From: Candidatus Parcubacteria bacterium
Lineage (GTDB): Bacteria; Patescibacteriota; Minisyncoccia; Minisyncoccales; S141-161
Length of the DNA stretch: 22,552 bases
Direction of reading: 5' to 3'
Assembly: GCA_027046565.1 (NCBI GenBank)
Contig: JALTXW010000007.1
Location: forward strand, 1 to 22,552
Part shown: one piece after another, positions 4,025 to 20,823 of the stretch
Layout of the letters: every line of letters starts with the position of its first letter
How positions within the stretch are numbered: position 1 is the stretch's first letter
The notes under the pieces: generated by a model
The model's input: the letters and a program-made list of their open reading frames with translations, nothing else
The model's database searches: none
What the model was told of the DNA's origin: nothing
Made by a program: the position numbers and the translations under genes

Positions 4025-4982
4025 CAAAAGGATTTTTAGCTCCTCTTACTCCAAAGTGAACATGACAACCTGCAGGCCCCTTTGGGATAGTAAATCCGGT
4101 GTAACCTGTATAACCTATAACTTGACCCTGGTAAACTCTTTGGCCAGGGTAAACTATTATCTTAGAGAGATGTCCATAATAAGTAACAATATTGTTTTGA
4201 TGCAAAATCCTAATGTATTTTCCTCCAATTCGAGAATAACCTGTCTTTTGAACCACTCCTCCCGCTGCAGCTAAAACTGGTTCTCCGCATATTCCGTTAG
4301 ACATATCTACCGCATTATACCAATGTAAACCTTGAGTGATTCTACAAGATCTTCCTAAAGGACAGATAAAGAAAGAGGATAAAGCCTTGGCAAATTTTTT
4401 CAGATTAACAGCATCCATTCTCTCTTTAGCACCAGGAATAATTAATAAGTCTCCGACATAAATCTTTCCCTCAACATCTAAGTTGTTAACCTTTATAATT
4501 TCTTGAGGATCAATATTGTAAAGTTTAGCTAAATAACTAACCGTTTCTCCCTCCGAAACATAATGCAAAATCCCTTTCACTGGCAAAATTATAAGCTTTT
4601 GTCCTGGTGTAATATTAAGCGAAGTTAAGTTATTAGCTTTAACTATAGTATCAACATCTATTCCAAAATCTTGAGCTATGGAACTTAAAGTATCGCCTTC
4701 TTTAACTATATACTCTATTATCGTCTTATCTTCTGTCAAAACGGAAAACTTTGAAAAAGAAATATAAGGAAGCTTCACAGGGTAAAAGGTGTTCTCTTGA
4801 AAAATAGAAAAAGAAGAAGATTCTAAAGATAAAGAGTTTTTCTTAAAATCTAAAAAGAAACTTTCTAGCTTTCCTCCATTCGGATAAAATTGAAAGAGAG
4901 AGTTAAAAGCAAAAGTGAAAATTAAACTAAAAGTGAAACCTAAAATAAAAAACCGCCACTTTCTTAAGCTATAGCTTTCCAT
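4017..4982 (-). CDS. LysM-domain M23 family peptidoglycan metalloendopeptidase
   Basis: There is an N-terminal TM anchor, two LysM repeats (GDTLSSIAQDFGIDVDTIVKANNL and GETVSYLAKLYNIDPQEIIKVNNL), and the M23 catalytic motifs HxxxD (HWYNAVD) and HxH (CHVHFGV). The gene is convergent with comM and overlaps it by 8 nt. Confidence 0.9.
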   Translation of the reverse strand: MESYSLRKWRFFILGFTFSLIFTFAFNSLFQFYPNGGKLESFFLDFKKNSLSLESSSFSIFQENTFYPVKLPYISFSKFSVLTEDKTIIEYIVKEGDTLSSIAQDFGIDVDTIVKANNLTSLNITPGQKLIILPVKGILHYVSEGETVSYLAKLYNIDPQEIIKVNNLDVEGKIYVGDLLIIPGAKERMDAVNLKKFAKALSSFFICPLGRSCRITQGLHWYNAVDMSNGICGEPVLAAAGGVVQKTGYSRIGGKYIRILHQNNIVTYYGHLSKIIVYPGQRVYQGQVIGYTGYTGFTIPKGPAGCHVHFGVRGAKNPFAK

Positions 4983-5019: not shown

Positions 5020-5850
5020 ATGTCAAAAGAAATCTTGCTTTTCTCTAAAGAGAAATTAAAGGCAATCTTTAAAAAAGAAGGTATATGGCCCAGAAAGGCT
5101 TTGGGCCAAAACTTTTTAATCAACTCTAAAATCGCCCGAAAAATAATTCAAGCTTTAAACTTAACTCCAGAGGATGTAGTAATAGAAATAGGATCGGGCA
5201 TAGGAAGGTTAGGCTTTTTGGTTTCAAAATCTGCAAAAAAGGTAATAGGGATAGAAAAAGATGAAAAATTAGTGAAAGTAGCCAAAAAGCTTTTTAAAGC
5301 TAAAAACTTAGAGTTTAAAAGTGAAGATATTTTAAGCTTCTTAAAAAAACAAAACTTAGAAGGCTTAAAAATAGTAGGCAACATTCCTTATTATCTAACC
5401 GGAAAAATCTTAAGAATACTTTTAGAAAGAGAAGATTTGCCTAAAGTGATAGTCTTAAGCTTGCAAAAAGAAGTAGGGGAGAGAATCATATCTCAACCAC
5501 CTAAAGCTACTCTTTTAGGAAACATTTTGCAATATTTAGCTAAAGTTGAGATAATAGAAAAGAAGATTCCTTCTAACTACTTTTATCCTCCACCTAAGGT
5601 AGAATCTATCCTGTTGAAGATAGAACCTAAAAATAGAGCTTTTAACTCAGATAAAAAAGTTATAAAATTGATGAAGGCAGGGTTTTCTCACCCCAGGAAG
5701 ACTTTAATTAAAAACTTAAAAGAAAAGCTAAACTTAAAAGAAGAAAAAATTAAAGCTGTTTTCAAAGAATGCGATCTCAAGGAAACATCCAGAGCTCAAG
5801 AATTAACTCTTCCCCAATGGGAAAAACTAAAAACAAAGTTAGAGTTTTAA
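5020..5850 (+). CDS. rsmA: 16S rRNA (adenine1518/1519-N6)-dimethyltransferase RsmA/KsgA
   Basis: The LGQNFL hallmark motif is present, along with the SAM-binding motif VIEIGSGIGRLG and the NIPY motif. The length of 276 aa is typical for KsgA. Confidence 0.92.
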   Translation: MSKEILLFSKEKLKAIFKKEGIWPRKALGQNFLINSKIARKIIQALNLTPEDVVIEIGSGIGRLGFLVSKSAKKVIGIEKDEKLVKVAKKLFKAKNLEFKSEDILSFLKKQNLEGLKIVGNIPYYLTGKILRILLEREDLPKVIVLSLQKEVGERIISQPPKATLLGNILQYLAKVEIIEKKIPSNYFYPPPKVESILLKIEPKNRAFNSDKKVIKLMKAGFSHPRKTLIKNLKEKLNLKEEKIKAVFKECDLKETSRAQELTLPQWEKLKTKLEF

Positions 5851-8411
5851 TCTTATTTTTGGCATCCTTTTTTATTTTAGCAAATTCAGCCTTAGCTCAA
5901 GGAGAAGACATCGAAAACTTTATTTCTCCTGATGTAAGACCATCCGATCCTGTAACTGAGATAGTAAAACGAGGAGCTAAAGTTGTTTTAGGATCTTTGG
6001 CAAGTCTGGGACTGTCTATAATAGCTGCCGTAGTCGCAGGCCTAGCTTATGTTGCTTACAAATTTGGTTCTTTAGCTCTATTAGCTTTAGGATGGGCTTT
6101 ATATCAAACTATCAATATCCCTATCTTAAGAGATGCAGCTGGTCAGCCTACTTGGGCCTTAGAAGTAGGATGGAGATTTACCCGAGACTTGGTAAATATG
6201 GTTTTTATCATAATCTTAGCTTGGATTGGAATAGCTACGATTTTAAGGCTTTCAGAATATAGAACTGGAAGGGTATTTTTAAACTTAATCTTGATAGCTT
6301 TGTTAGTAAACTTTAGCCCGGTTTTGGTAGGTTTAGTTATAGACGTATCCAATATAATTGCAGGGTTTTTCATTAACGGAATATTAAACAATCCCCAATC
6401 TACCAACGTGTTAGACTCTTTATGTGTAGGCGATAACGATCCCACCACCGAAGAGCGAGGGATTTGGTGTGCAATGGGGGCTGAAATAGCTACGATTTTA
6501 AGCAAAGCTGCTAACATCACTCCCGACCTTACCGATAACTTAGAAGGTATCTTTGCTTTAGTAGCTTATGGAGGTTTCTTTGTGATAGCTACCTTTGTTT
6601 TTGGATTATTAGCTTTGCTTTTTATCTTTAGAGTAATAGCTTTTTGGATATTGTTAGTGTTAGCTCCAATTGCCTTTGTAGCTTTTATTCTCCCAGCTAC
6701 AAGATGGATTTGGAATATGTGGTGGCACCAGCTTCTGCAATGGGCATTTATAGGAGTGATAGCAGCTTTCTTTATCTTTTTGAGCTTCCAGCTTTTAGAA
6801 GCATCAACCTCTACCCAACTTACTCAAGCTTTTGAATGCGGAACTCCAACTGGAGAATCAATTTGTGATGTAGTAGCTCAAAGAAGCGGAGGAGATAGAG
6901 ATAACCCTTCCGCAATTGCAATCTTTGCGGAAAGAGTTTCAAGGTTTGTGATAGCTTTAGCCTTTATGATAGCAGGGCTATTTTATGGTTTTTCAACCAG
7001 TGCAATGGGAGCTACCACTATAATGAGATTCACTCAAAAGAGAGCTCTTCCTGCAACTTTAAGATTTGCAGGCAGGAGTGCAGCTTGGGTTCCAAGAAAG
7101 GTAATTTCTCATCCTCGAGCTAAAGCCAGAATTCAACAAGCAGCTTTAACTACTCCCACTCTAAGAGAAAGCTTTGCCCAAGCTAAAGGAGTAGGAGGGA
7201 AAATTAAAGCTGTAGCTTTGTCTCCTTTTCGCTTTGCTAAAAGAGAAACCGCTCAACTCTTGTTGAGAGGAGAAGAGTTTGAAAGAAGGAGATTTGAAAG
7301 ATTAGGAAAAGAGTTAGCAGAAAGAAAAACTGAAAGTCAAATTCTAAATACCTTGAGATTTGGAAAAGTTTCCCAAGCCTCTGCATTGGCCCAATCTTTA
7401 GCTCAAAAGGGGGAGCTTAAAGATTACACTCAAAGATTGAGAGAATTAGGGATGGAAGAAAAAACTTTAAACCAAAGAATGAAAGAATTAATCAAATATG
7501 CAGCTGGAATTAGCCCAGATTTAGCTAAAGAGATGGTAAAATCTCAAGTTCATTTAGCAGATGAACTAGCAAAAGAGCTTCCTAGAGATCTAGCTAAATC
7601 TATAGGTTTGAGCTTTAAAGATGAGGAAGAGAGAAGAAAATATGAAGATAGCTTAGTTGCAAAGCTTTTAGATAAGATGGGAACTAAAGATATACCTAAG
7701 ATAGATATAGAGGGGTTGAAGCAATTGTTAGAAAGAGGGTTTGCTTCTCCTGCAGGAAGCAAAGAGTTACTTCAAGCTCAAAAGATAAGAGAACAAATTA
7801 ACCTTTGGGATAACGCTAAGTTTTCTAAAGCTGCCGAAGAGTTTGGAGAAGATTTTGTGAAGATTTTGGAAAAGGAAAAGCCAACTTTAGGCAAAATTTT
7901 AGTAGATTACAAAAATCTATCTCAAGCTACTTGGTTAGCTAGCAATGCCGCTAAAGAAGCAGGAATTCCTTATTCAACTGTGTTATCTCCAAGGCAAGTT
8001 ATAGGTTTGCATCGGACTTTAGAGCTTGCAAAGAAACAACCTGAAATCTTAAAGAAAAATCTTGAAAATGTTAATAAAGAGTTAGAGAGCCTTCAAGAAA
8101 AAGCAGAAAGGCAAGAACTAACTGAAGAAGATTACAGAAGACAACAAGAGTTAGAAGAAATAAGAGAAGTCTTAAGGTATGCTATTGAAAAGCAAGGAGA
8201 AGAAGAAAGGAGAGAGGAAAGAGAAGAAAGAGGTCCTGAAGAAGAAGGACCTACTCCTACTTTACCTTCTATAGGACCCAGAGGTAGAGGCGGATCTTCG
8301 AGAGGAGCGCCCTCAACTCCATCTTTACCACCTCGCGGTAGAGGAAGTGCTCAATCTCCCAACCCTCAACTTCCTCCTTCTATTCCTAGAAGAGGAAGAA
8401 AAATAGAATAG
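5817..8411 (+). CDS. Polytopic membrane protein with signal peptide and long charged/RG-rich C-terminal tail; a possible VirB6/TrbL-like channel component
   Basis: I chose the ATG at 5817 (MGKTKNKVRVLILFLASFFILANSALAQ, a signal peptide with an AxA site) over the track start at 5769, which would overlap rsmA by 80 nt. There are at least 7 hydrophobic helices between residues ~70-420, followed by a ~450-aa helical K/E-rich hydrophilic domain ending in PRGRG repeats. The VirB6-like assignment rests on topology and context only, with no motif-level proof. Confidence 0.55.
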   Translation: MGKTKNKVRVLILFLASFFILANSALAQGEDIENFISPDVRPSDPVTEIVKRGAKVVLGSLASLGLSIIAAVVAGLAYVAYKFGSLALLALGWALYQTINIPILRDAAGQPTWALEVGWRFTRDLVNMVFIIILAWIGIATILRLSEYRTGRVFLNLILIALLVNFSPVLVGLVIDVSNIIAGFFINGILNNPQSTNVLDSLCVGDNDPTTEERGIWCAMGAEIATILSKAANITPDLTDNLEGIFALVAYGGFFVIATFVFGLLALLFIFRVIAFWILLVLAPIAFVAFILPATRWIWNMWWHQLLQWAFIGVIAAFFIFLSFQLLEASTSTQLTQAFECGTPTGESICDVVAQRSGGDRDNPSAIAIFAERVSRFVIALAFMIAGLFYGFSTSAMGATTIMRFTQKRALPATLRFAGRSAAWVPRKVISHPRAKARIQQAALTTPTLRESFAQAKGVGGKIKAVALSPFRFAKRETAQLLLRGEEFERRRFERLGKELAERKTESQILNTLRFGKVSQASALAQSLAQKGELKDYTQRLRELGMEEKTLNQRMKELIKYAAGISPDLAKEMVKSQVHLADELAKELPRDLAKSIGLSFKDEEERRKYEDSLVAKLLDKMGTKDIPKIDIEGLKQLLERGFASPAGSKELLQAQKIREQINLWDNAKFSKAAEEFGEDFVKILEKEKPTLGKILVDYKNLSQATWLASNAAKEAGIPYSTVLSPRQVIGLHRTLELAKKQPEILKKNLENVNKELESLQEKAERQELTEEDYRRQQELEEIREVLRYAIEKQGEEERREEREERGPEEEGPTPTLPSIGPRGRGGSSRGAPSTPSLPPRGRGSAQSPNPQLPPSIPRRGRKIE

Positions 8412-10076: not shown

Positions 10077-10100
10077 CGAGGTCAGGGGCTTATTATTTTG
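10061..10100. terminator. Bidirectional rho-independent terminator between convergent small genes
   Basis: A 12-13 bp stem (GCCCCTGGCCTC / GAGGTCAGGGGC, one G-U pair) with loop TAAC is followed by TTATTATTTT on the plus strand and by a T-rich run on the minus strand. It spans both stop codons. Confidence 0.7.
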
Positions 10101-10494: not shown

Positions 10495-10902
10495 ATGGAA
10501 GAATTAACTAGAGAAGAGTTTTGGAAAATTTACAAGCTTTTGCCTAAAGAACTTAAAGAAGCTATCTTTTCTCCAAAAACAGCAGATGCTATAGCTTCAG
10601 CTTTAGACTCAGCTAATATTGAAGATTCAAGAGCAGACTTAGTAGCAAAACTTACAGGACGAGTCTTGCTTGGACTTTTGCCTCCTCAAGACTTTACTCA
10701 AGCTTTGGAAAAAGAAGCTAATCTTTCTCCAGAAGAAGCGAGAAAAGTAGGACTAAAGATTTCAAGATTAGTCTTTTTGCCAGTAAGAGATAAGTTAGAT
10801 TTAATTTATTCAGAAGAGTTAACTCCCGGAAGCAAAGAAAAAGCTTTAAAAGAACCTCAGAAACCAAAATATTACGACCCTTACAGGGAACCGATAGAAT
10901 AA
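10495..10902 (+). CDS. Hypothetical soluble acidic protein, first gene of VirB4 operon
   Basis: The ORF is 135 aa with no TM segments, and the next gene starts 4 nt after its stop. I could not identify a recognisable family from the sequence alone. Confidence 0.5.
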   Translation: MEELTREEFWKIYKLLPKELKEAIFSPKTADAIASALDSANIEDSRADLVAKLTGRVLLGLLPPQDFTQALEKEANLSPEEARKVGLKISRLVFLPVRDKLDLIYSEELTPGSKEKALKEPQKPKYYDPYREPIE

Positions 10903-10906
10903 AAAT

Positions 10907-11323
10907 ATGGCAGAGTTTACAGTACCAAAATTTATTGAAAGAGAACCGGTTTTAATTTGGAAGATAACTTTTAGACAATTTATGATTTTAGCTTTGGGAG
11001 TATTAGTTTTGACCGTCTTAAAATTTGCTTTACCTCCTTTCCTCTTTTATTTAACTACTACATTCTTTGTAATCTTTGCCTTCTTGGCTATCTTTGTCAA
11101 AATACACGGAAGACCTTTCACCACTGTGTTAAAAAACTTTGTGCTGTATACTTTTTCTCCTAAAACTTTCCTATGGAAAAGAAAATCTTCAATGCCAAGA
11201 TTGATTACTAAAGAAAAAAAGCAAAAAGAAAAAACTAAAGAAGATATTTTAGAAAGTCCACTTCAAGTTATAGGCAAAAGCAAACTTAAAGAGATTGCCA
11301 GAAGGGTAGAAACTGGAATTTAA
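10907..11323 (+). CDS. Small two-TM membrane protein, PrgI/VirB3-like candidate
   Basis: The 138-aa protein reads WKITFRQFMILALGVLVL ... FLFYLTTTFFVIFAFLAIFV, i.e. two TM helices preceded by a (L)T-x-RQF motif reminiscent of PrgI-family VirB3 analogues. It sits immediately upstream of VirB4 as in Gram-positive T4SS loci. The C-tail is charged. Confidence 0.45.
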   Translation: MAEFTVPKFIEREPVLIWKITFRQFMILALGVLVLTVLKFALPPFLFYLTTTFFVIFAFLAIFVKIHGRPFTTVLKNFVLYTFSPKTFLWKRKSSMPRLITKEKKQKEKTKEDILESPLQVIGKSKLKEIARRVETGI

Positions 11324-11327
11324 AATT

Positions 11328-11954
11328 ATGGTTAGAACTTCAACCCAACAATTTTTAGAGTTTGATCAAATTAGAGAAGGAGTAATAATTTTAAAAAACA
11401 AAGGATTGAGAGGAATCTTGATGGCTTCTTCTTTGAACTTTGCTTTGCTTCCTCAAGAAGAACAAGATGCAATCACTTACCTCTACCAAGATTTCCTAAA
11501 CTCTTTAGATTTTCCTATCCAAATTTACATTCAATCTCGAAAGCTAAATTTAACTGGATATTTGGACCAAATTAAAGCTTTAGCTGAAAAACAAACTAAC
11601 GAACTTTTAAAAGCTCAAACTGTAGGATACTATAAATTTATCAAACAACTAGTTACGGAAGGAACTATAATGACTAAATCCTTCTATATCGTTATACCTT
11701 TTACCTTAGCTGATATGGGACTCAAAGCAGGAAGAAAAGGAATTATTAATTTAACCGAAAGCTTATTTCAAAAGGCCAAAACTCAGCTTTTTCAAAGAAT
11801 GGAGTTTGTAGCTTTAGGATTAAAAAGATTAGGAATTAGAGCTATCCCTTTAACTACCGCAGAGATAATTGAGCTTTTTTGGGCGATGCACCACCCTCAA
11901 GAGATGGAAGTAGGATATTTTCCAGAAATTCCTCCAGAACTAACTTCTCGATAA
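11328..11954 (+). CDS. VirB4-family N-terminal domain protein (separate ORF)
   Basis: The sequence FDQIREGVIILKNKGLRGILMASSLNFALLPQEEQDAITYLYQDFLNSLDFPIQIYIQSRKLN matches the conserved N-terminal segment of Gram-positive-type VirB4/TraE ATPases (I-dG-i...iN..L.s.eEq......fLNsL.fpiQi). It ends with TAA at 11952-11954, 1 nt before the ATPase ORF, which is in a different frame. Confidence 0.6.
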   Translation: MVRTSTQQFLEFDQIREGVIILKNKGLRGILMASSLNFALLPQEEQDAITYLYQDFLNSLDFPIQIYIQSRKLNLTGYLDQIKALAEKQTNELLKAQTVGYYKFIKQLVTEGTIMTKSFYIVIPFTLADMGLKAGRKGIINLTESLFQKAKTQLFQRMEFVALGLKRLGIRAIPLTTAEIIELFWAMHHPQEMEVGYFPEIPPELTSR

Positions 11955-11955
11955 T

Positions 11956-13758
11956 ATGAAGCTGAAGCTTAATTTACCTTTCTTACAACCTAAAAAGCCA
12001 GAACTTCCAGAGTTAACCTTTGGGGAACCTATTAATGTTAAAGACATTGTAGCTCCGCCTTTTATCGAAATCACCCAAAACTATATTAAATTAGGAGAAA
12101 GATTTGCTAAAACTTTCTTTGTTTTCTCTTATCCCAGATATTTAAGCACAGCTTGGATGTCACCTCTAATTAACTTAGATACCCCTTTTGACATTTCTAT
12201 CTTCATCTTCCCTGCAGATGTAGGTGAAGTGTTAAGGCAATTAAGGAAAAAGGTAGCTGAAGTTCAATCTGAAATTATTGAAAGAGAAGAAAAAGGATTA
12301 GTAAGAGATCCAGAATTAGAAACAGCTTACAGAGACTTAGAAGAGTTAAGAGATAGATTGCAAACTGCTCAAGAAAAGATGTTCCATGTAGGAGTTTATA
12401 TTACAGTTTACGCTAACTCTGAAAAAGAACTTCACGACTTGGAAGCTCAACTAAGATCTATCTTGGAGGCAAGATTAGTTTACATTAAACCTGCAATCTT
12501 TCAACAAAGAGAAGGGTTTATAACTACAGCTCCTTATGGGATGGATCTAATTCAAGTTTACACTCCAATGAATACCGCGCCTTTATCTTCTATGTTTCCT
12601 TTTGTCTCTTATGATCTAAGTTCAAACGAAGGAATCTTGTATGGAATAAACAAACACAACAACTCCTTAGTTTTATTTGATAGATTTACTTTAGAAAATG
12701 CAAACGAAGTAGTTTTTGGAAAAGCAGGTTCAGGTAAAAGCTATGCAGTAAAGCTTGAAATTCTAAGATACCTGATGATGGGAGTAGATGTGATAGTTAT
12801 TGATCCTGAAAACGAATACGAATTTTTAGCTGATGCAGTGGGAGGTTCTTTCTTTAATGTATCTTTAGCTTCTCCTCATAGAATCAATCCTTTTGACCTG
12901 CCTCAGCCTACACCCGAAGAAAGACCTGAAGATGTTTTAAGAAGTAATATCATCAATTTGGTAGGTTTAATTAGGATAATGTTAGGAGGATTAACTCCTG
13001 AAGAAGATGCTATAATTGATTCAGCTTTAACTCAAACTTATGCTATCAAAGATATCACTCCCGAATCAGATCCTGCTACTTGGCCAGAAAAAGTTCCTTT
13101 ATTTTCAGATCTCCAAGATGTCTTAGAAACGATGGAAGGTGCAGAAAGCTTAGTAAGAAGACTTCAAAGGTTCACCACTGGAACCTTTGCAAGCTTTTTT
13201 AATCAGCACACTAACATCTCTATTAACAATAAGTTTGTAGTCTTTGGAATAAGGGATATGGAAGAGAGTTTAAGACCAATTGCAATGTATATCATTATGA
13301 GATTCATCTGGAATGAAATTAGAAGAAAGTTTAAAAAGCGAATCTTAGTAATAGATGAGGCTTGGTGGTTAATGCAAACTGAAGATGGAGCTTCTTTCTT
13401 ATATGGTTTAGCTAAAAGAGGAAGAAAGTATTGGTTAGGAGTTACTACTATCACCCAAGATGTAATTGATTTTTTGAGATCTGATTATGGCAAACCTATA
13501 ATTACCAACTCTTCTTTACAGCTTTTGATGAAGCAAAGCACAGCTGCAGCTGAAACCTTAGTTAAAACCTTCAATTTAACTGAACCAGAAAAGATGTTTT
13601 TGATTGACGCTCCAGTGGGAGAAGGATTATTTTTTGCAGGCCAAAAGCATGTAGCTATTAGAGTAGTCTCTTCTTATGCAGAACATCAAATCATTACTAC
13701 TGCTCCAGAAGAAGTGGCTAAAATTAGAGAGGCTAAAAGGATAATCAAAGGTTACTAA
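11956..13758 (+). CDS. virB4: VirB4/TrbE/TraC-family type IV secretion ATPase (central and C-terminal ATPase domains)
   Basis: The central region typical of VirB4 (FAKTFFVFSYPRYLSTAWMSPLINLDTPFDISIFIFP) is present. Walker A is FGKAGSGKSY, followed by VIVIDPENEY. Walker B is ILVIDEAWWLM, carrying the DEAW signature. The ITQDVIDF and SLQLLMKQS motifs are also present. Confidence 0.9.
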   Translation: MKLKLNLPFLQPKKPELPELTFGEPINVKDIVAPPFIEITQNYIKLGERFAKTFFVFSYPRYLSTAWMSPLINLDTPFDISIFIFPADVGEVLRQLRKKVAEVQSEIIEREEKGLVRDPELETAYRDLEELRDRLQTAQEKMFHVGVYITVYANSEKELHDLEAQLRSILEARLVYIKPAIFQQREGFITTAPYGMDLIQVYTPMNTAPLSSMFPFVSYDLSSNEGILYGINKHNNSLVLFDRFTLENANEVVFGKAGSGKSYAVKLEILRYLMMGVDVIVIDPENEYEFLADAVGGSFFNVSLASPHRINPFDLPQPTPEERPEDVLRSNIINLVGLIRIMLGGLTPEEDAIIDSALTQTYAIKDITPESDPATWPEKVPLFSDLQDVLETMEGAESLVRRLQRFTTGTFASFFNQHTNISINNKFVVFGIRDMEESLRPIAMYIIMRFIWNEIRRKFKKRILVIDEAWWLMQTEDGASFLYGLAKRGRKYWLGVTTITQDVIDFLRSDYGKPIITNSSLQLLMKQSTAAAETLVKTFNLTEPEKMFLIDAPVGEGLFFAGQKHVAIRVVSSYAEHQIITTAPEEVAKIREAKRIIKGY

Positions 13759-13762
13759 AATT

Positions 13763-14107
13763 ATGGAAGAAGAGATTGTTTTAAAATCAAGATTTTATAA
13801 CAATTTAGTAGGACCTGAAGGTGTCCTAATGCTTTCTTTAGCTTTTGGATTTGACTTAATAGAGATTATAGCCAACTTAGTACCTGTAGCTGGCGACTCA
13901 ATAAGCTTAGCAATAGACGTTTTAGCTTTCATATTTATAGGAGGATGGCTAATACTGAGAGGAGAATTTTGGAGAAGAATTACAAAAAGGAGAAAGTTAA
14001 GAATGTTGAAATCCTTGATGATTTTAGCTGAAATTTTACCAATCCCTTTTATAGGAGATCTTCCTTTCTGGACAATTATCGTGTTTACCGAATTAAGAAA
14101 CTCTTAA
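13763..14107 (+). CDS. Small (114 aa) multi-TM membrane protein of unknown function (alternative VirB3-like candidate)
   Basis: It has three hydrophobic segments and a basic loop (RRITKRRKLRMLK). It sits between VirB4 and the first pilin-like gene, and flanking genes are 1-4 nt away. Confidence 0.5.
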   Translation: MEEEIVLKSRFYNNLVGPEGVLMLSLAFGFDLIEIIANLVPVAGDSISLAIDVLAFIFIGGWLILRGEFWRRITKRRKLRMLKSLMILAEILPIPFIGDLPFWTIIVFTELRNS

Positions 14108-14108
14108 A

Positions 14109-14942
14109 ATGCTCCAAGTTACCACCCAAATCCAATATCCAAATTTGCCTCAGACTCCTTTTCCCTCCCCTTTAACTTTACCTTCCTTTTTTAACTACAT
14201 TTACAACCTTTTAATTGTGGCTGGGATAATAATAGCTTTAACTCTGCTAACTAGTGCAGGATTAACCTATCTTTTTTCTGGAACAAATGTTCAGCGTAAA
14301 CTTCAAGCTAAAGAGCAAATAATTTCAGCTTTGTTGGGCTTGGGAATCTTATTAGGTTCTTATCTTATACTTTCAGCTTTAGATCCCAACTTAACTGTGC
14401 CTGCAATTTCTAATCTTCCTCAAATCGAAATCCCAACTTCTCCTCCTATTTCTTATCAACCTTATCGTCCTTCTGCAGTATTGGAAGTAATAGATAGTTA
14501 CGAAAGAGAAACTTTAGAGCTTATTTCTTTTTTGGAAGCTTCAACCTTTAACTTGTATAACTTAATTTTGAGTTTAGAAATCTTAGACTTTACTAAAAAA
14601 GTAGATGAAGCTTTAAAGCTTCCCAACTGCGCTAACACTGAAGCTATCTGCGTTCCAAAAGGACTTTTGCCTATACCTGCTAAATGCGAATGGAAAGAAT
14701 CTCCAGTGAAGTTAGCTTCAGAACTTTTGCAAAAAGACTTGGTGTTAAAAGTTAGAGATCCTATCTTAGAGTTAATAAACTCCCAAAAGCCTAAGGAGTT
14801 AACTTTAACTCTTTCTAAAATTAACAACTGCTTAAGCTCTTTAGAAAAACAGCTTTTTATAGAAGGAGAGTTTCAAGATTACTTAAGCTACTTTAACCTT
14901 TCTTCTAAAGGTCCTTTAACCTTTTATTGTGCTAAAAGATGA
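14109..14942 (+). CDS. VirB2/TrbC-like pilin-hairpin fusion protein, paralogue 1 (277 aa)
   Basis: A QIQYP box lies at residues 7-11. The two-helix hairpin reads LLIVAGIIIALTLLTSAGLTYLFSGTNVQRKLQAKEQIISALLGLGILLGSYLILSALDPNL. The C-terminal domain contains Cys and ends FYCAKR. It overlaps the next gene by 4 nt (ATGA). Confidence 0.6.
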   Translation: MLQVTTQIQYPNLPQTPFPSPLTLPSFFNYIYNLLIVAGIIIALTLLTSAGLTYLFSGTNVQRKLQAKEQIISALLGLGILLGSYLILSALDPNLTVPAISNLPQIEIPTSPPISYQPYRPSAVLEVIDSYERETLELISFLEASTFNLYNLILSLEILDFTKKVDEALKLPNCANTEAICVPKGLLPIPAKCEWKESPVKLASELLQKDLVLKVRDPILELINSQKPKELTLTLSKINNCLSSLEKQLFIEGEFQDYLSYFNLSSKGPLTFYCAKR

Positions 14943-15655
14943 GATTTGGCTTAAAAGAAAAAATTTTAATCTTGGCCGTGGGTTTATCTTTTATCTTTAA
15001 TGGCTTCCCTAATCCTAACGAAGCGAGTTCTATTGGAGAATGCAAGTTGGCTCCAATTGGCCAACCTTCAAAGAGGGCTTTAGAAATTCACAAAGAGTTA
15101 ATCTATTTATTTTTGCTTTTGGAAAATGAGCTCTCTGCTTTAGAAAATAAAGCTTCCCAAGTTTTACCTTTAATTGTCCAATGTTCAATTGACAAATGCA
15201 AAATAGAAAAAGATATGTGCCCTTTTATATGCAAGCCTGAAGAGTGTGAAGTAAAAGCTTCCTGTAAACCTATTTCACCAGACTTTGAAGAAACGGTATG
15301 CTCTCAAGAAGTAAAAGATGAGATTGAAAATATAAAAAAAGAGATAGAACCTATAACAGAGAGCATAAAAGAACTCTTAGTTAAAATTGGAAAGTTAGGT
15401 TCCCCTATACCTATTACTATTGGAGGAATAAATGTAGTAGGAGAATTGTCTGAACTTAAGCAAAAATTAAAAAAGGGAAAAGATATCCTTTTAAACTTTG
15501 ATCCTCAGAAAGAAGTTCTGTTAAACTGCAATCAAGCTAAAAGGTTTAAAGTGGTGCCTTCCTGTTTTCCAGAAATAATCAACTTTTTAGGCATTACCCT
15601 TCCTTTAAGTGATACTCCAGATAGTCAAATTGATTACTTTGTATGCCAAAAATGA
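14939..15655 (+). CDS. Secreted cysteine-containing protein (238 aa)
   Basis: It has a signal-peptide-like N-terminus (ILILAVGLSFIFNG) and ~13 Cys in clusters (CSIDKCKIEKDMCPFICKPEECEVKASCKP). The C-terminus reads YFVCQK. Confidence 0.6.
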   Translation: MRFGLKEKILILAVGLSFIFNGFPNPNEASSIGECKLAPIGQPSKRALEIHKELIYLFLLLENELSALENKASQVLPLIVQCSIDKCKIEKDMCPFICKPEECEVKASCKPISPDFEETVCSQEVKDEIENIKKEIEPITESIKELLVKIGKLGSPIPITIGGINVVGELSELKQKLKKGKDILLNFDPQKEVLLNCNQAKRFKVVPSCFPEIINFLGITLPLSDTPDSQIDYFVCQK

Positions 15656-16842
15656 AAACTTTAATTTTAAAAAGCCTCTTTTTGCTTCTCTTTTCAGCCT
15701 CTTTTGCTTTAGCTCAAAACTTACAGTTAGAATATCCTTCTCCCCCTGGCACCCCTTCGCCTTCAGGAGGAGTAGAAGACTTTTTTAGATATCTTTATAC
15801 TTTCTTACTGATCATAGGAGGAATTTTAGCTGTATCTTTAGTATTTTTAGGAGGTTTTTTTTATCTTACTTCTTTTGGAAATCTTCAAAGAGTATCTCGA
15901 GGAAAAGAGCTTATAGTCTCAGCGTTATTGGGAGCTTTTATTTTATTCTCTTCCCATCTAATATTAAATACTTTAGATCCTTACTTAGTTACTATTCCAA
16001 ATTTAAGAATTAGACCTCTTGTTCTCCCATCTTTTTCTGTTCCGGTTTTAGAAAAAGAAAAAAGAGCAACAGGTTGTCAACCTTTAAATCTTCAAGCTAA
16101 ATTAGAAGCTATTTTTTCTAAAGAGAAGGAAGCTTTAGATATAGCTGAAAAAGCAATAAAACTGGATGCTTTGCAAAAAATAAAACAGAAAACAGAAGAA
16201 ATAGTCAATGTAGTAGCTCAGTGTGATTGCTCTAAATTTCAACCTGAGTGTTTAGTAAAAGATTCGGGTTCTCCTGCTTGTCCTGCAAGATGTCCTCCTA
16301 GTTCTTCTATTCCTCCTCCTCCTTCTGAAGATCCTTGTCCTCCAGAACTTAGATCTAAGTTAATCCCAGAATTAGAGGAAATCTTGGATTTCTATCCTGA
16401 ACTCTTCAGTTTAATAGAAAGCTTTGGATTTGATCTAACTTCAGAACAAGAAGATTTAGTAAAATCTATAATTGATAAACTCTTAATTCAAGACAAAACT
16501 TCTTCTTTTTCTTTGTTTGTAGATAAATTTATAAAAGATTTGGAAGAGTTAGTTTTAAAACAGAATCTTTCTTCAGATCCCCAAGAAAGAAAGAAAAGAA
16601 TAAAAGAATTAGAAAGGTTGTTTTCCCAATCTTTATGGATATTAACTAAAATTTTAACTAATATCACTACTTCTTTGGCTAAGTTAAATTTTGAATTAGA
16701 AAAGATATTGCAAGAAGCTACTCAAGCTCGTACCGATATAGGATCAGTCAAAGTTTTAACTTGTTACCAAGCTTTGGCCGAAGGAAAAGTAGATATTGGA
16801 GAATGCGTAGGAAGGGAGTTGGATTTATATTATTGCAAATAA
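15643..16842 (+). CDS. VirB2/TrbC-like pilin-hairpin fusion protein, paralogue 2 (399 aa), Cys/Pro-rich C-terminal domain
   Basis: The signal peptide (cleavage at ALA-QN) is followed by an LQLEYP box. The hairpin reads FLLIIGGILAVSLVFLGGFFYLTSFGNLQRVSRGKELIVSALLGAFILFSSHLILNTLDPYLV. The C-terminal domain has CDC and CPARCPP motifs and a PPPPSEDPCPP stretch, and ends LYYCK. Confidence 0.65.
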   Translation: MPKMKTLILKSLFLLLFSASFALAQNLQLEYPSPPGTPSPSGGVEDFFRYLYTFLLIIGGILAVSLVFLGGFFYLTSFGNLQRVSRGKELIVSALLGAFILFSSHLILNTLDPYLVTIPNLRIRPLVLPSFSVPVLEKEKRATGCQPLNLQAKLEAIFSKEKEALDIAEKAIKLDALQKIKQKTEEIVNVVAQCDCSKFQPECLVKDSGSPACPARCPPSSSIPPPPSEDPCPPELRSKLIPELEEILDFYPELFSLIESFGFDLTSEQEDLVKSIIDKLLIQDKTSSFSLFVDKFIKDLEELVLKQNLSSDPQERKKRIKELERLFSQSLWILTKILTNITTSLAKLNFELEKILQEATQARTDIGSVKVLTCYQALAEGKVDIGECVGRELDLYYCK

Positions 16843-16843
16843 G

Positions 16844-17875
16844 ATGCAGGGTTTAACTAAAAATAAAATTTGGCTGTTAGTTTTGTTTTCTATCTTTGTT
16901 ATCTCTTTTATCTTTCAAGAGAAAAATCTCGTAGCTCAAACACCAGCCCCAGTCAATCCTACCATTTTGAGAGGTTTAGAAAGTGGAGAGATAAAAATCT
17001 GCGGAAGAGAGATAAACTTAGGAGGGCATTTAGAAAGAGTGAACCTCCATCTTAAAGAATTTCTACCCATACTAACTGATTTGGAAAAATCTTTTGAAGC
17101 TATTCTGCTTAGTGGCAAAAAAATTTCTAATCTTGCTAAAAATTGTTTGAGAGAAAACTGCGGAGCTTCTTGTGGGTGTAGAAATGTGGCGGTTACTAAG
17201 TTTAATTATTGCGAAACAGTTTCTTTAATATGTGAGTGCGAGGTCAAAGGTAATGTCACTATATGCAAAGCTGGAGGCTATAAGATTAGAAAAGATCTAA
17301 ACATAGAATGCAGAGACAAAGGAAAAGTGGTTAAAAAAAGGATAGAACTTCAAGTTCCAGAAGTAGCTTGTTTTCCAAATCAACAAGGCGACTTAATAAA
17401 AATTGAAAAAGTTTGCACTGGAATCCAAGATGTTCCTGAGTGTGGAAGGGAATGCTGCACAGAACAAGGAACAGTATACAATCCGCCAGATATATCCGAA
17501 GGGGGAGTACAGCAGTTGGGATGTCAAAAGGTAGACAGCTGTAAAGCTCAACCTCAACAATGCCAAGGAATAGGAGAAGGACCTTTAGGAACTGCTCCTT
17601 GTCCCGAGGGAATCAATAAAAACTATCAGAACGTTAAAGACTTAATTGAAAATATACCAGATATTTTGAAAGAGTTAGAACAACTTCAGTTTTCAATTTA
17701 CAAGCTAGAGAGAGAAAAAAGAGATTTAGCTAGAACTTTTCGAACCTGGTATTCTCAAAGAGACAAGAAAGATCTGTTTGATTGTATTACGATGCGAAGC
17801 TTGGAAAAATACTTAGTTAAATATCCAGTAGAATGCCCTTATGGAGGTTTAACTTATTTTGAATGTGAAAGATAG
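16844..17875 (+). CDS. Secreted highly cysteine-rich protein (343 aa, ~30 Cys)
   Basis: The signal peptide is KIWLLVLFSIFVISFIF...LVAQ. Dense Cys clusters follow (NCGASCGCRN, CECEV, CGRECCTEQG, CKAQPQQCQG). The C-terminus reads YFECER. Confidence 0.65.
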   Translation: MQGLTKNKIWLLVLFSIFVISFIFQEKNLVAQTPAPVNPTILRGLESGEIKICGREINLGGHLERVNLHLKEFLPILTDLEKSFEAILLSGKKISNLAKNCLRENCGASCGCRNVAVTKFNYCETVSLICECEVKGNVTICKAGGYKIRKDLNIECRDKGKVVKKRIELQVPEVACFPNQQGDLIKIEKVCTGIQDVPECGRECCTEQGTVYNPPDISEGGVQQLGCQKVDSCKAQPQQCQGIGEGPLGTAPCPEGINKNYQNVKDLIENIPDILKELEQLQFSIYKLEREKRDLARTFRTWYSQRDKKDLFDCITMRSLEKYLVKYPVECPYGGLTYFECER

Positions 17876-17891
17876 GTTATAATTTAAAAAT

Positions 17892-19460
17892 ATGAAAAAG
17901 ATTTGGATAATTTTAGCTTTGATAATTTTAAGTTTAGCTTTTAAAGCTGAAGCCCAAATTAAAGAAAGAGGGATCCTACCTCAGTTAGATTATCCTGCAG
18001 TAAGAGGATTAGATTTGGATCAACTAATGAGAGAAGGACAGATTACTTTAGATACCATAGCAAGATATGTTTATTACTTTTTTATAACTATTGGAGGAAT
18101 AGTAGCCTTGACAGGTTTAGTGTTAGCTGGGATAAAGTGGCTGCTATACTCTGGATCTCCGTCAGGAATCTCTGAAGCTAAACAAAGTTTTTTAGCGGTA
18201 TTTTTAGGAATGATAATTCTTTTTGGTTCTTGGGTAATCTTAAACACTTTAGATCCTCACCTCAAAAATCTTCCTTTATTAGGAACTAAAGCCAAAGTCC
18301 CAACTCCTCCAGAAAGAGGACCTTTACCTGGAGAAAGTCATATTAGAATTTATGTGGAACCATCTGCAAACACCAGACTGCCTCGAAGTTTAATAGAAGA
18401 TGGAATTGCGCTTACCGAAGAAAGTTTTCCTATTTTAAATCTTAAAAAGCTTAAAATTGGAAACAAAGTTTATGATTTATCCGGCGGAAATAACTCTGAT
18501 GGAAAGATAGTTGGAGTTAGATTTTTCTTAAAGAGTAAAGGTAGCGGGATAGACTGGGTAGCTCCGAAAGGGCCTACTATTGGAGGAGGAGTAGCACTCT
18601 TGCCTCAAATTCCAGAGTTTCATTATGGAGTAGTATGTTTTGAAGAGCCTCAAAATAGAGGAAGGTTCACACTTGTATTTTCTATGGAAAGTTTAGAATA
18701 TAATCCTCAAACTGGATTTCTAGAAAGTCCTTCTACTCCTATTCCTTTAGTGATTTACAACAATCGCATTTCTGATAATCCCGAATCTCCTTGCCAATCT
18801 TTAGGATTGATAAAAGTTCCCACCGGAGGAGAAGTGGTTGGCCTTCCTTTAGATTCTGAAAACATTACTTTTTATGAATTTCCTTTACCTGAAGCTGTAA
18901 TCCTGACTACTTCAGCTGGAGGTCTAAAAGAGCTTAAAGGAGGATGCATAGAGATAGGTGAGAGGTTAGATTTAGATTGTGAGACCGGAGTCAGTGTAAT
19001 GCCAATAATTGCAGCTTCGATGGGATGGAAAGCATCTTTTGCTCCACCAATTTGTAGGAATTTAAAAGGAAAAACTAAGATAGATCCTGATAAAGACATC
19101 TTTAGAGAATGGTATCCTATGGCAATGGAGCTTTACGCAGAAAATAAAAACAAGTATTTAGTAATCCTGCTTCCAGATATCTCTGAAAATCCCTGGGATC
19201 CGGCTTCACCTAATGGATTTTACATTAGACGAGAAGGGTTTTATGGAGGACCTGCCTACTTTATTACAGGAGTAAGAACAATAGATAGTTTTAAAACTCT
19301 TTCAGATCTTACTTATTGGATTACCAGATATCCTAACCCTTCAAAGCTGTATTATTATGGGCCTGCAGTAGATTTAGACTCTCTATTGGAAGCTGAAAAG
19401 TACGCTCCTAAAAGTTGTATCATCATCCCTATAATCTCAGTCAAGATTCATTCTGGTTAA
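17892..19460 (+). CDS. VirB2/TrbC-like pilin-hairpin fusion protein, paralogue 3 (522 aa)
   Basis: The signal peptide (cleavage after AEA) is followed by the PQLDYPAVRGLDLDQLM box. The hairpin reads FFITIGGIVALTGLVLAGIKWLLYSGSPSGISEAKQSFLAVFLGMIILFGSWVILNTLDPHL. The AGIxWLxxG motif resembles the VAIGISWMFG of VirB2/TrbC pilins. It has a large C-terminal domain. Confidence 0.7.
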   Translation: MKKIWIILALIILSLAFKAEAQIKERGILPQLDYPAVRGLDLDQLMREGQITLDTIARYVYYFFITIGGIVALTGLVLAGIKWLLYSGSPSGISEAKQSFLAVFLGMIILFGSWVILNTLDPHLKNLPLLGTKAKVPTPPERGPLPGESHIRIYVEPSANTRLPRSLIEDGIALTEESFPILNLKKLKIGNKVYDLSGGNNSDGKIVGVRFFLKSKGSGIDWVAPKGPTIGGGVALLPQIPEFHYGVVCFEEPQNRGRFTLVFSMESLEYNPQTGFLESPSTPIPLVIYNNRISDNPESPCQSLGLIKVPTGGEVVGLPLDSENITFYEFPLPEAVILTTSAGGLKELKGGCIEIGERLDLDCETGVSVMPIIAASMGWKASFAPPICRNLKGKTKIDPDKDIFREWYPMAMELYAENKNKYLVILLPDISENPWDPASPNGFYIRREGFYGGPAYFITGVRTIDSFKTLSDLTYWITRYPNPSKLYYYGPAVDLDSLLEAEKYAPKSCIIIPIISVKIHSG

Positions 19461-19464
19461 AAAT

Positions 19465-20823
19465 ATGGTCAAAGCTTTCTTTTATCTACTCTTGATCCCT
19501 CAGCTAGATTACCCTTCAATAGGGGGAAGAGATTTAGATCAAATAATGTTATCTTCTCCTATAGGAGCTACAGTAAGAGATTTAGCTTTGTATCTTTTTG
19601 ATTTTTTAATTTTAAGTGGAGTAATTTTAATCTTATTGAGCTTAACTTTTGCTGGAATAAAGTGGCTTTTAAGCCAAGGCAATCCTGGAAAACTCCTTTC
19701 AGCTAAAAACCAAATGCTTTCTGCTTTGACCGGAGGTTTCATCTTATTGGCTTCTTGGGTAATCTTAAATACTTTAGATCCTTATTTGGTAAGGATAAGA
19801 GAACTGCCTAACTTTTCAATTCAAACTCCAAATAAAAAACCTTTAGAGAAAGGAAATAAAATAATTTTAATCATTGAACCGTCGTCAAATTCTAAGCTTC
19901 CCTTAGGAATTCAAACAAGAAAGAGGATAGTTTTAGATGAAAACTCTTTTCCTATTCCAGATATAACTAAGTTTAAGTTAGGAGGTAGAACTTATGATCT
20001 ATCTGGAAAACCTAACTCTGATGCTAAAATTTTAGGTATAAAGTTTGAAATAGAAGCAGAAAAGGATACAGAAAAGTTAGATTGGAACAAAGGTTTAGTC
20101 AAAAATCCTCCCCAATTCCATTATGGAGTTTTATGTTTTGAAAAGAAAAGTTACAAAGGAAAATTGGAAATCGTGTTTTCATTTATGCCCGAAAAGTATA
20201 AAGACCCTCCTGGGATTTGGATTACTAACTTACGAGAACTAAAAGTAAAGTATGGAGGTTTAAACTCTCCTTGTCAATCTTTAGGACTAATAAAAGTCCC
20301 TCTTCCTCACAAACTTTTAAGTTTGCCAAGTTACGGAGATAACCTTACCTTCTACGAAAATCCCTTTCCTCAAAGATACAAAGTAAACATAGATCCTACT
20401 ACCGGCAAAGAAAGCTTCGAATTAATTGGAGAATGTATAGAATTAGGAGATAGAGCAGACCTTAATTGCAGAATCACTACTCCTAATTTATTGCCTATTC
20501 ACAGAATAGGGACACCGTGGTGGGAATGGTTTTTAGTACAAGGTTGTGTTAATTTAAGTTTGCCAGGAGGCAAATTTCCTACCTCTTTAGAGGTTTACCC
20601 TGCTAACATTCAGCTTTATTTGATTTTATTATTAGATACTGCCTATCCTAACCCTGGAGCTTATTTTTCATCTAACTATAGCCTTTCTGCTAATCCTTTT
20701 TATTATGTTTTTGGAATCACTCAAATAAACAACTTTGACCAGCTTCCCAAAGAGATAAGAAAGAGACCCAAAAGTTGCGCTATCGTGCCCATCGACGGAA
20801 TAAAGATAGAGAAAGTATTTTAA
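19465..20823 (+). CDS. VirB2/TrbC-like pilin-hairpin fusion protein, paralogue 4 (452 aa), tandem duplicate of paralogue 3
   Basis: The PQLDYPSIGGRDLDQIM box lies at residues 12-28, followed by the same hairpin and the SWVILNTLDPYLV motif. The C-terminal domain shares motifs with paralogue 3 (FHYGV-CFE, SPCQSLGLIKVP, YDLSG-NSD-KI-G, IE-G-R-DL-C, KSC-I-PI). The 30-nt nucleotide islands match paralogue 3 at 29 of 30 positions. Confidence 0.7.
   Translation: MVKAFFYLLLIPQLDYPSIGGRDLDQIMLSSPIGATVRDLALYLFDFLILSGVILILLSLTFAGIKWLLSQGNPGKLLSAKNQMLSALTGGFILLASWVILNTLDPYLVRIRELPNFSIQTPNKKPLEKGNKIILIIEPSSNSKLPLGIQTRKRIVLDENSFPIPDITKFKLGGRTYDLSGKPNSDAKILGIKFEIEAEKDTEKLDWNKGLVKNPPQFHYGVLCFEKKSYKGKLEIVFSFMPEKYKDPPGIWITNLRELKVKYGGLNSPCQSLGLIKVPLPHKLLSLPSYGDNLTFYENPFPQRYKVNIDPTTGKESFELIGECIELGDRADLNCRITTPNLLPIHRIGTPWWEWFLVQGCVNLSLPGGKFPTSLEVYPANIQLYLILLLDTAYPNPGAYFSSNYSLSANPFYYVFGITQINNFDQLPKEIRKRPKSCAIVPIDGIKIEKVF

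Follow-up and report, generated by a model that had tools for sequence, protein, structure and literature searches.

A chromosomal VirB4-centred type IV secretion locus with an array of large hairpin proteins in a bacterium of the Paceibacteria lineage

The 22,552-nucleotide contig JALTXW010000007.1 of Candidatus Parcubacteria bacterium (GCA_027046565.1), analysed here over its full length and referred to as the window, carries at 10495-20823 a run of closely packed genes, O1 to O11, centred on a VirB4 ATPase. Together with a VirB6-like gene upstream, this locus is very probably the Paceibacteria-lineage instance of the chromosomal type IV secretion system (T4SS) of Patescibacteria, derived from conjugation machinery of the monoderm mating-pair formation type FATA (MPF-FATA), CD1110/CTn2-like, without its DNA-processing part. 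The core comprises a VirB6-like protein, PrgI/VirB3, VirB4 in two halves (a TrsD-like protein and the ATPase) and the small proteins O1 and O5, and it is followed by a variable array of six genes (O6-O11), four of which encode proteins with a pilin-like hairpin and a long C-terminal extension.

The Patescibacteria T4SS was described by Wang et al. (2023) in Ca. Southlakia epibionticum as an unusual system closest to Gram-positive conjugative systems, with no recognizable coupling or relaxase proteins, whose genes are essential together with a pilin array as determined by transposon sequencing (Tn-seq) (PMC10633639). In a survey of 3,035 genomes, Quinonero-Coronel et al. (2025) found PF18895-type pilin genes near virB4 in 1,135 assemblies and reported that the Paceibacteria T4SS lies near rnpA/ksgA/dnaA; the array proteins were treated as small VirB2-like pilins, and no adhesins were reported found (PMC12102498). 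A 2025 review regards the system as a newcomer within the T4SS superfamily, with a pilus that is speculated to be a conduit (PMC12857230), while in a cultivated Minisyncoccota parasite tubular structures, suggested to be T4SS pili, penetrate the host, and host RNA is taken up (bioRxiv 10.64898/2026.06.21.733656). Epibiotic growth depends on the T4SS in the only species for which this was tested, and the function of the system has been called 'completely unknown' (PMC11665869). Earlier publications already cover the system itself, the lack of a relaxase, the pilin arrays and the location near rnpA/ksgA/dnaA (PMC10633639; PMC12102498; PMC12857230). What the cited papers leave undiscussed is that most of the hairpin proteins carry C-terminal extensions that are near-orphan in comparison with the conserved VirB4.

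The ATPase and membrane core

Protein families were sought in the open reading frames (ORFs) of at least 100 aa in the window. With O4 as the query against one genome per species, at least 577 stretches were found to encode a VirB4 relative, and the best 80 of these, many of which end early, served as the related loci (cited by L numbers), their gene order being read from tblastn of all window proteins. The family counts obtained with jackhmmer and with a hidden Markov model (HMM) of the hairpin refer to a set of 81 sources. The core genes are as follows.

5817..8411, + strand: VirB6/TrbL-like polytopic membrane protein, extended, 864 aa (sub-threshold TrbL, orthologue matches, synteny)
10495..10902, + strand: O1, first operon gene, small soluble protein of 135 aa with no transmembrane (TM) segment (jackhmmer family)
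10907..11323, + strand: O2, PrgI/VirB3-like two-TM protein, 138 aa (PF12666)
11328..11954, + strand: O3, TrsD-like protein, 208 aa (NCBIfam, BLASTP)
11956..13758, + strand: O4, VirB4 ATPase, 600 aa (NF045971, 4AG5)
13763..14107, + strand: O5, small three-TM protein, acidic residues within the membrane segments, basic loop, 114 aa (family recurrence)

O4 matches NF045971, 'VirB4-like conjugal transfer ATPase, CD1110 family', with 378 bits (cutoff 325) and P-loop_TraG with 91.6 bits, and its best solved structure is 4AG5, the C-terminal domain of the Thermoanaerobacter VirB4 (E 1e-43). The Walker A sequence GKAGSGKS occupies aa 255-262 (nt 12718-12741), and the Walker B sequence DEAW aa 467-470 (nt 13354-13365). 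The profile and PDB searches thus bear out the VirB4 ATPase that had been proposed for this locus from the letters alone (the original prediction), and a HerA or FtsK identity was rejected on the NF045971 and 4AG5 matches, those of the HerA type being at the P-loop level only. O4 is 63-72% identical to the VirB4 proteins of the best 80 CPR (candidate phyla radiation) chromosomal loci, compared with 29-36% to plasmid VirB4 proteins of Bacillota and Actinomycetota, and by its nearest neighbours it appears to belong to the MPF-FATA-related clade of Patescibacteria VirB4.

The N-terminal part of VirB4 is encoded by a separate gene. O3 matches the NCBIfam models TrsD (E 3.6e-4), VirB4_plasma at positions 103-233 (E 2e-6) and conju_CD1110 at positions 2-133, and its aa 5-184 align in BLASTP with aa 26-189 of a full-length VirB4 (797 aa) from the C. 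botulinum plasmid pCDC3875 (E 3e-6), of which O4 covers approximately aa 212-792. Since O3 and O4 are colinear with successive parts of this protein, VirB4 is split here into two genes, with O3 equivalent to the detached N-terminal domain of a monoderm VirB4 and O4 to its ATPase body. O3 was found in 79 of the 80 related loci, with a median identity of 55%; a PDB sequence search with it was negative. The predicted PrgI/VirB3-like protein was confirmed in O2, which has two TM segments, scores 30.5 bits against PF12666 (gathering score 27 bits) and is hit in 73 of the 80 loci.

The original prediction had also pointed to a polytopic membrane partner nearby. The protein, encoded at 5817-8411, appears to be part of the system as its VirB6; its N-terminal half is rich in TM segments and its C-terminal half is long and hydrophilic. 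In 59 of the 80 related loci PrgI-TrsD-VirB4 is preceded by a homologue of it, and the VirB6-like character emerges at the level of the orthologue family, as TrbL is matched by 8 of 35 orthologues from related loci (best E 1.8e-8) and TrbL_4 by 2 of them. The 3' end of rsmA and the start of the VirB6 gene overlap by 34 nt (5817-5850), which suggests co-transcription with a housekeeping gene. The tail of VirB6 (8270-8411) is of low complexity, rich in Arg, Gly, Pro and Ser, and ends ...RGRGGSSRGAPSTPSLPPRGRGSAQSPNPQLPPSIPRRGRKIE.

The two small proteins O1 and O5 are, judged by their recurrence, lineage-conserved components of the system. No Pfam or NCBIfam family was found for O1, and the 36-38 orthologues that were scanned for it and for O5 gave scattered sub-threshold Pfam hits only. 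The O1 family, whose conserved columns include a C-terminal motif D.YREP.E, is represented directly 5' of PrgI by 68 ORFs across the 81 sources. O5 itself has only a weak Pfam match, to DUF4112; its family has about 50 ORFs in the 81 sources, 30 of them immediately upstream of a hairpin gene, and it accompanies either VirB4 or the hairpin array. Comparisons of O5 by hhalign with O1 and with the small protein encoded after VirB4 in pCDC3875 were negative, and an origin of O5 as a detached pilin leader was rejected because there are no O5-hairpin fusions and most of the hairpin genes that follow it have a leader of their own.

According to the ORF listing and the junction analysis, 10495-20823 contains 11 tiled, co-directional ORFs on the + strand. 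The original prediction counted 12, and there is no space for a twelfth gene in any intergenic gap. The gaps from O1 to O11 are, in order, 4, 4, 1, 4, 1, -4, -13, 1, 16 and 4 nt, so that the lower bound of the predicted spacing (-13 to +14 nt) was right and the upper bound fell short of the measured +16. The junctions are TAAAAATATG, TAAAATTATG, TAATATG, TAAAATG, TAAGATG (a stop, A/T-rich letters and ATG) or ATGA, as predicted in type, and this layout is compatible with translational coupling, of which it is no proof. A Shine-Dalgarno sequence at the usual spacing precedes the start codon of none of the 11 operon genes (O5 has just two matches, 15 and 25 nt upstream of its start), in contrast to a small gene at 9852 that is preceded by a strong AGGAGG. 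All operon ORFs are intact and closely packed, and GC content is 0.343 in both the operon and its left flank.

The hairpin and cysteine-rich array

The array consists of four hairpin proteins and two Cys-rich proteins that lack the hairpin.

14109..14942, + strand: O6, hairpin (VirB2-like) protein, 277 aa, hairpin at nt 14133-14396 (PF18895 24.1 bits, hairpin HMM)
14939..15655, + strand: O7, non-hairpin Cys-rich protein, orphan, 238 aa, 11 Cys (Cys content, C-terminal aromatic-Cys motif)
15643..16842, + strand: O8, signal peptide and hairpin, 399 aa, hairpin at nt 15730-15990 (PF18895 22.5 bits)
16844..17875, + strand: O9, signal peptide and Cys-rich, 343 aa, 22 Cys (hydropathy scan)
17892..19460, + strand: O10, signal peptide and hairpin, 522 aa, hairpin at nt 17991-18263 (PF18895 29.7 bits)
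19465..20823, + strand: O11, hairpin protein, O10 paralogue, 452 aa, hairpin at nt 19510-19791 (PF18895 27.2 bits)

That four proteins carry a pilin hairpin, as originally predicted, follows from their PF18895 matches and from their mutual homology (BLASTP E 3e-8 to 5e-14, pairwise identity ~33-42%). O10 and O11 pass the PF18895 gathering score of 26.6 bits and O6 and O8 are narrowly under it; O6 and O8 are homologous to each other over aa 24-185 (E 2e-15) and are found by the hairpin HMM with E 2e-25 and 5e-24, respectively, and O8 also matches TrbC (PF04956, E 0.0065). The hairpin, with the consensus YP...GG..yl.S.GnP....AK.rI...lGL.iLl.SyLIL.TINP.L, ends at aa 96-124 in the four proteins, and its loop is rich in Lys and Arg as read from the sequences. 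A two-helix hairpin after a leader, as in a classical VirB2/TrbC pilin, is present (TM pairs, PF18895), but instead of a small hairpin-only precursor of ~100-140 aa these genes encode proteins of 277, 399, 522 and 452 aa. A DNA repeat of 54 nt at 15959-16012, 18235-18288 and 19760-19813 (65-70% identity to the reference copy) encodes the hairpin end ILNTLDP[YH]L in O8, O10 and O11, and reflects paralogy, not a mobile-element boundary.

N-terminal hydrophobic leaders were detected in O8, O9 and O10 by a hydropathy scan. Two secreted Cys-rich proteins had been predicted, and their richness in Cys holds for both O7 and O9; an N-terminal hydrophobic segment was scored for O9 but not for O7, whose N-terminus is signal-like by eye and has no TM or signal segment in the scan.

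The C-terminal extensions of the four hairpin proteins are 180-400 aa in length and contain 5-10 Cys each (5 in O6 and 10 in O8). The hairpin HMM retrieved 121 hairpin ORFs from the 81 sources, with a median length of 499 aa (range 127-2075 aa), and in 109 of them at least 100 aa follow the hairpin. These extensions contain a median of 12 Cys, the count being even in 83%, and short classical pilins are few among the relatives (L073, L077, L080). The reverse architecture was also observed upstream of VirB6 in relatives, in proteins of 550-820 aa that have Cys/Trp-rich repeats at the N-terminus and the hairpin at the C-terminus, which means that the hairpin is joined to large ectodomains in both orientations.

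L047:581-3043: C-terminal-hairpin protein
L073:534-2879: C-terminal-hairpin protein
L015:11-1654: C-terminal-hairpin protein
L067:4-2289: C-terminal-hairpin protein

Divergence is very different in the core and in the array. Relatives share a median identity of 68% with VirB4 and 55% with TrsD, compared with ~31-34% with the hairpin proteins, whose tblastn matches stop close to the hairpin (at a median of aa 106-129 in the query), and the array varies in gene number, sequence and position, being found 3' of VirB4 or inverted upstream of VirB6. This contrast points to the array as the region in which to seek determinants of host specificity, and it cautions against modelling the array proteins as simple pilins.

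Two classes of ectodomain can be distinguished in the window, those of O6-O9, which contain Cys and end in an aromatic-aromatic-Cys(-Cys) motif, and the rare all-beta type of O10 and O11. In the first class, the C-terminal endings are FYCAKR in O6, YFVCQK in O7, YYCK in O8 and YFECER in O9 (14890-14942, 15600-15655, 16790-16842 and 17820-17875), that is, two aromatic residues and a Cys, often doubled to Cys-Cys, with 1-3 more residues before the stop. Endings such as NYYCCN, NFFCCDLK and NWFCCH occur in relatives (L006, L007, L008, L013, L025, L027, L032, L035, L036, L041, L063) on both hairpin-fused and stand-alone Cys-rich array proteins, and the motif could be a common terminal subdomain or a site of intermolecular disulfide formation. 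The O8 extension groups weakly (E 6e-6) with a cluster of extensions that has 43 members. O7 has no Pfam or NCBIfam family and no relative in the 80 related loci even by jackhmmer. O9 is an orphan in a word-index search of 5.8 billion clusters, which returned the query alone, and its N-terminal ~115 aa recur in 17 related ORFs, both in stand-alone array proteins and within the extensions of hairpin proteins.

The second class is represented by the C-terminal domain of O10, which is all-beta and ~390 aa in length (nt 18279-19457). The word-index search with O10 returned only the query and its window paralogue, and a profile of the C-terminal domain only O10 and one other protein. Among 1.84 billion representatives, the O10/O11 domain has 7 members, and the five beyond O10 and O11 all have the leader-hairpin-domain architecture. 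An AlphaFold2 model of the O10 domain reached pLDDT 30 with a 2-sequence alignment and pLDDT 60 with pTM 0.67 with a 7-sequence alignment. A Foldseek search of the model against the PDB gave nothing significant, and on weak evidence the domain may have a beta-gamma-crystallin-like fold.

Chromosomal position and neighbouring genes

The 80 best relatives of the locus are all from CPR genomes, mostly of Paceibacteria (Nealsonbacteria, Staskawiczbacteria, Minisyncoccales), in agreement, like the families themselves, with the predicted T4SS-like apparatus of the kind seen in episymbiotic CPR bacteria. The recurring gene order is dksA - comM - M23(-) - rsmA - VirB6 - [SPFH(-)] - [O1] - PrgI - TrsD - VirB4, followed by [O5 - hairpin array] - jag(-) - yidC(-) - yidD - rnpA(-), and the neighbours found among the 80 loci include jag (63), yidC (61), VirB6 (59) and rsmA (38). 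In some of the relatives VirB4 is directly adjacent to jag, and their hairpin genes, accompanied by O5 in several of them, are inverted upstream of VirB6. The window has the same flanks, rsmA on one side and jag (R3H), yidC, yidD and rnpA on the other, which agrees with the original statement that the locus has core-gene flanks and is no obvious ICE (integrative and conjugative element) or plasmid remnant; the synteny comparison suggested with that statement found the rsmA-yidC position conserved in most of the 80 genomes.

No relaxase, type IV coupling protein (T4CP), VirB11, integrase, tRNA or Rfam RNA was found in the 22.5-kb contig, and a repeat scan found no boundary-like direct repeats, so that the predicted lack of a relaxase, VirD4, VirB11, an integrase and direct-repeat boundaries was upheld. 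Mobility genes were also looked for beyond the window: in L031, the one related locus followed beyond rnpA, the sequence continues into rpmH and then dnaA - dnaN, with no mobile element. Because the neighbours and their order recur across most of the 80 related genomes, the locus is a conserved, origin-proximal feature of the chromosome with a mobile and variable array, and not the remnant of an ICE. The other genes in the left part of the window are the following.

109-2157, + strand: 682-aa protein at the contig edge (no family)
2525-4024, + strand: YifB/ComM-family AAA+ protein (TIGR00368 522 bits, cutoff 362)
4017..4982, - strand: LysM and M23 peptidoglycan endopeptidase (Pfam LysM x2, Peptidase_M23)
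8435-9754, - strand: SPFH/Band-7 protein, N-terminal membrane part polytopic, gene located between VirB6 and the operon (HflK-like, E 7e-9)
9852-10076, + strand: 74-aa protein with one N-terminal hydrophobic segment (strong Shine-Dalgarno)
10082-10300, - strand: 72-aa two-TM protein (strong Shine-Dalgarno)

Two of these genes might be related to the T4SS in function. A comM homologue was detected on the upstream side in 17 of the 80 related loci. In other bacteria ComM has a role in natural transformation, and its proximity is a possible hint of nucleic-acid handling near the T4SS. The M23/LysM gene, present in 34 of the 80 loci and always beside rsmA, possibly encodes a wall-remodelling helper of the VirB1 type. 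M23/LysM-containing VirB1 homologues have been reported, and VirB1 homologues are associated with virB4 in Paceibacteria (PMC12102498). As a demonstrated VirB1 the protein was rejected, its NCBIfam matches being generic MepM/DipM-like only.

The SPFH gene has a homologue at the same position in 22 of the 80 loci. The two small genes at 9852 and 10082 are convergent between the SPFH gene and the operon and share a bidirectional terminator-like hairpin with a 14-bp stem at 10060-10091, and a good promoter-like site (TTGAAA-17-TATAAT with TG, 10361-10333) precedes the minus-strand gene for the 72-aa protein; for neither the 74-aa nor the 72-aa protein was a family found, or a homologue in the 80 loci. 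The 682-aa protein, for which no Pfam or NCBIfam family was found, has a Lys/Glu-rich, coiled-coil-like N-terminal part of ~440 aa, one TM segment, a Pro-rich linker and a C-terminal domain of ~180 aa, a bitopic architecture that may loosely recall components of the VirB8/VirB10 type; weak homologues are found upstream of dksA in three related loci.

Proposed function, alternatives and relation to known systems

By analogy with VirB4 in other T4SSs, the VirB3/VirB4/VirB6 platform would pull the hairpin modules out of the membrane and would then build them into a surface structure resembling a pilus or a fibre. The sequences suggest that the positively charged loop of the hairpin is in the cytoplasm, and if so the Cys-rich, disulfide-capable C-terminal domains would be outside the cell, placed to contact the host, which fits with the extreme divergence of the ectodomains if these serve host-specific recognition or adhesion. 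A broader proposal, put forward tentatively since it may well prove wrong, is that the Paceibacteria hairpin is a general N-terminal, and sometimes C-terminal, export and assembly module by which large, hypervariable and disulfide-rich host-recognition domains are mounted on a VirB4-built fibre, such that the arrays are determinants of host range.

Several points weigh against this interpretation of the locus as a T4SS that assembles its array. The association between the hairpin proteins and VirB4 is genomic only, and no short pilin of ~100-140 aa is encoded on the contig; such pilins exist in Saccharimonadia and in a few of the relatives. Judged from the published geometry of the F-pilus, packing of that kind would be sterically implausible if every subunit bore a domain of 20-45 kDa, and the fusions may for this reason be minor or tip subunits, be cleaved near T(I/L)(N/D)P.L, or be anchored in the membrane. 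O6 is without a signal peptide and the N-terminal hydrophobic leader of O11 is truncated. In the core, the window VirB6 scores just 17 bits against Pfam TrbL (E 0.0045-0.006), under the gathering score of 25.9 bits, and no VirB8-like or clear VirB1-like component was identified. The single-operon status is judged from the spacing of the genes, and scans for promoters and terminators inside the operon gave results at or below shuffle expectation, which neither support nor refute a single transcript.

A different function for the same machinery is import, in which host DNA or RNA would pass through a pilus-like tube of a ComB- or Ced-like device and feed a cell that is unable to make nucleotides. 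Nucleotide acquisition by the T4SS has been proposed (PMC11665869), the host-penetrating tubes and host RNA uptake of the cultivated parasite point in this direction (bioRxiv 10.64898/2026.06.21.733656), and comF, recG and radA are found near the T4SS in class ABY1 (PMC12102498); in the window, comM/yifB lies 8 kb upstream, 17 of the 80 related loci have a comM homologue, and the contig encodes no coupling protein or relaxase for export. ComM, however, is a widespread housekeeping/competence helicase, and rsmA and other housekeeping genes intervene. The match to CedB is at the P-loop level, no CedA-like protein was detected among O1-O10, and no nucleic-acid-binding component is identifiable in the sequence. 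In S. epibionticum comEC is dispensable and the T4SS essential (PMC12857230), which separates the T4SS from classical competence and still permits direct import. Import is on this evidence a rather unlikely explanation of the locus.

The array proteins might instead be ordinary surface adhesins exported by Sec/YidC independently of VirB4, with adjacency due to the clustering of envelope genes near the origin. The hydrophobic leaders of O8, O9 and O10, the adjoining yidC, and the large, Cys-containing extensions unlike those of classical pilins would all suit such proteins, and the array is separable, being inverted upstream of VirB6 or undetected beside VirB4 in a subset of relatives. Even where relocated, however, it is still beside VirB6, and the hairpin matches PF18895 and, weakly, TrbC/VirB2 and the Mycoplasma ICE family NF045849. 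Moreover, pilin genes are near virB4 in 1,135 assemblies (PMC12102498), and S. epibionticum requires its pilin array as well as its T4SS genes (PMC10633639), so that a VirB4-independent array is improbable. A decayed ICE or plasmid remnant, stripped of its relaxase, coupling protein and integrase, would explain why VirB4, PrgI and VirB6 are homologous to and ordered like a clostridial conjugative module (VirD4-VirB6-PrgI-hyp-VirB4-small protein-SLT hydrolase in pCDC3875), but it was rejected as hardly credible given the chromosomal neighbours that recur in the 80 CPR genomes, the much higher identity of VirB4 among CPR than to plasmids, the intact and packed ORFs, the GC content equal to that of the flank, and the lack of an integrase, tRNA or att-like repeat on the contig.

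The Patescibacteria T4SS interpretation is best placed by comparison with the systems that resemble it. The archaeal Ced/Ted DNA-import systems, which the original prediction had invoked, are likewise non-conjugative and chromosomal and have a VirB4-family ATPase without a relaxase or T4CP. They differ in that the PrgI, TrsD, VirB6 and PF18895 proteins found here are of bacterial monoderm T4SS types, and membership of the locus was rejected in the NCBIfam scan of the ten operon proteins O1-O10, in which CedB reached 44.9 bits (cutoff 700) and CedD 23.3 (cutoff 600), with no match for a partner of the CedA type. The analogy was accordingly dropped. The VirB2/TrbC/TraA pilins of diderm bacteria share with the hairpin proteins a leader, a two-helix hydrophobic hairpin and a basic connecting loop, but they are short as mature proteins (~70-120 aa), whereas those of the window have large domains predicted to be extracellular and belong to a monoderm cell.

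The Mycoplasma ICE is closer. O2, O3 and O4 match successive parts of the 894-position Mbov_0397 model, at 5-117 (E 0.27, not significant), 103-233 (E 2e-6) and 293-892 (E 2.6e-84), and O10 (E 1.7e-4) and O6 (E 0.015) weakly match the Mbov_0395 pilin-like family (NF045849), which suggests that another wall-less/monoderm lineage pairs this type of VirB4 with a pilin-like hairpin. The scores are far under the equivalog cutoffs (283.6 versus 590 for Mbov_0397 and 21.2 versus 40 for Mbov_0395), and the Mycoplasma system is, unlike the present one, a mobile ICE with a fused VirB3-TrsD-VirB4. With the monoderm MPF-FATA CD1110/CTn2 T4SS of pCDC3875, the locus shares a VirB4 above the CD1110 equivalog cutoff (30% identity over 95%) and the colinear order VirB6 - PrgI - x - VirB4 - small TM protein. 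The pCDC3875 module, in contrast, contains VirD4 (CD1115), an SLT hydrolase and a relaxase (MOBP typing), and its VirB4 is one protein of 797 aa, while in the window VirB4 is split into O3 and O4 and the hairpin array is added.

The resemblance extends furthest with the Patescibacteria T4SS itself (SEML1_0006-0019 in S. epibionticum; PMC10633639, PMC12102498). Both have PrgI - TrsD-like - VirB4 (~600 aa) with an extended VirB6, divergent PF18895 pilin-like genes with non-pilin genes interspersed (here O7 and O9), no relaxase or T4CP nearby, and a chromosomal site near rnpA/ksgA/dnaA. The window differs in having O1 and O5 in addition and no peptidase or lysozyme gene directly 3' of VirB4. The S. 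epibionticum pilin genes SEML1_0016-0019, in the part of the source that was available, are of 312-417 bp and encode proteins of ~104-139 aa whose hairpin is close to the C-terminus, whereas all four hairpin proteins here are of 277-522 aa with an N-terminal hairpin and a Cys-containing extension. The locus represents not a new kind of system but a clean Paceibacteria case of a known one, in which every hairpin protein bears a large and variable ectodomain.

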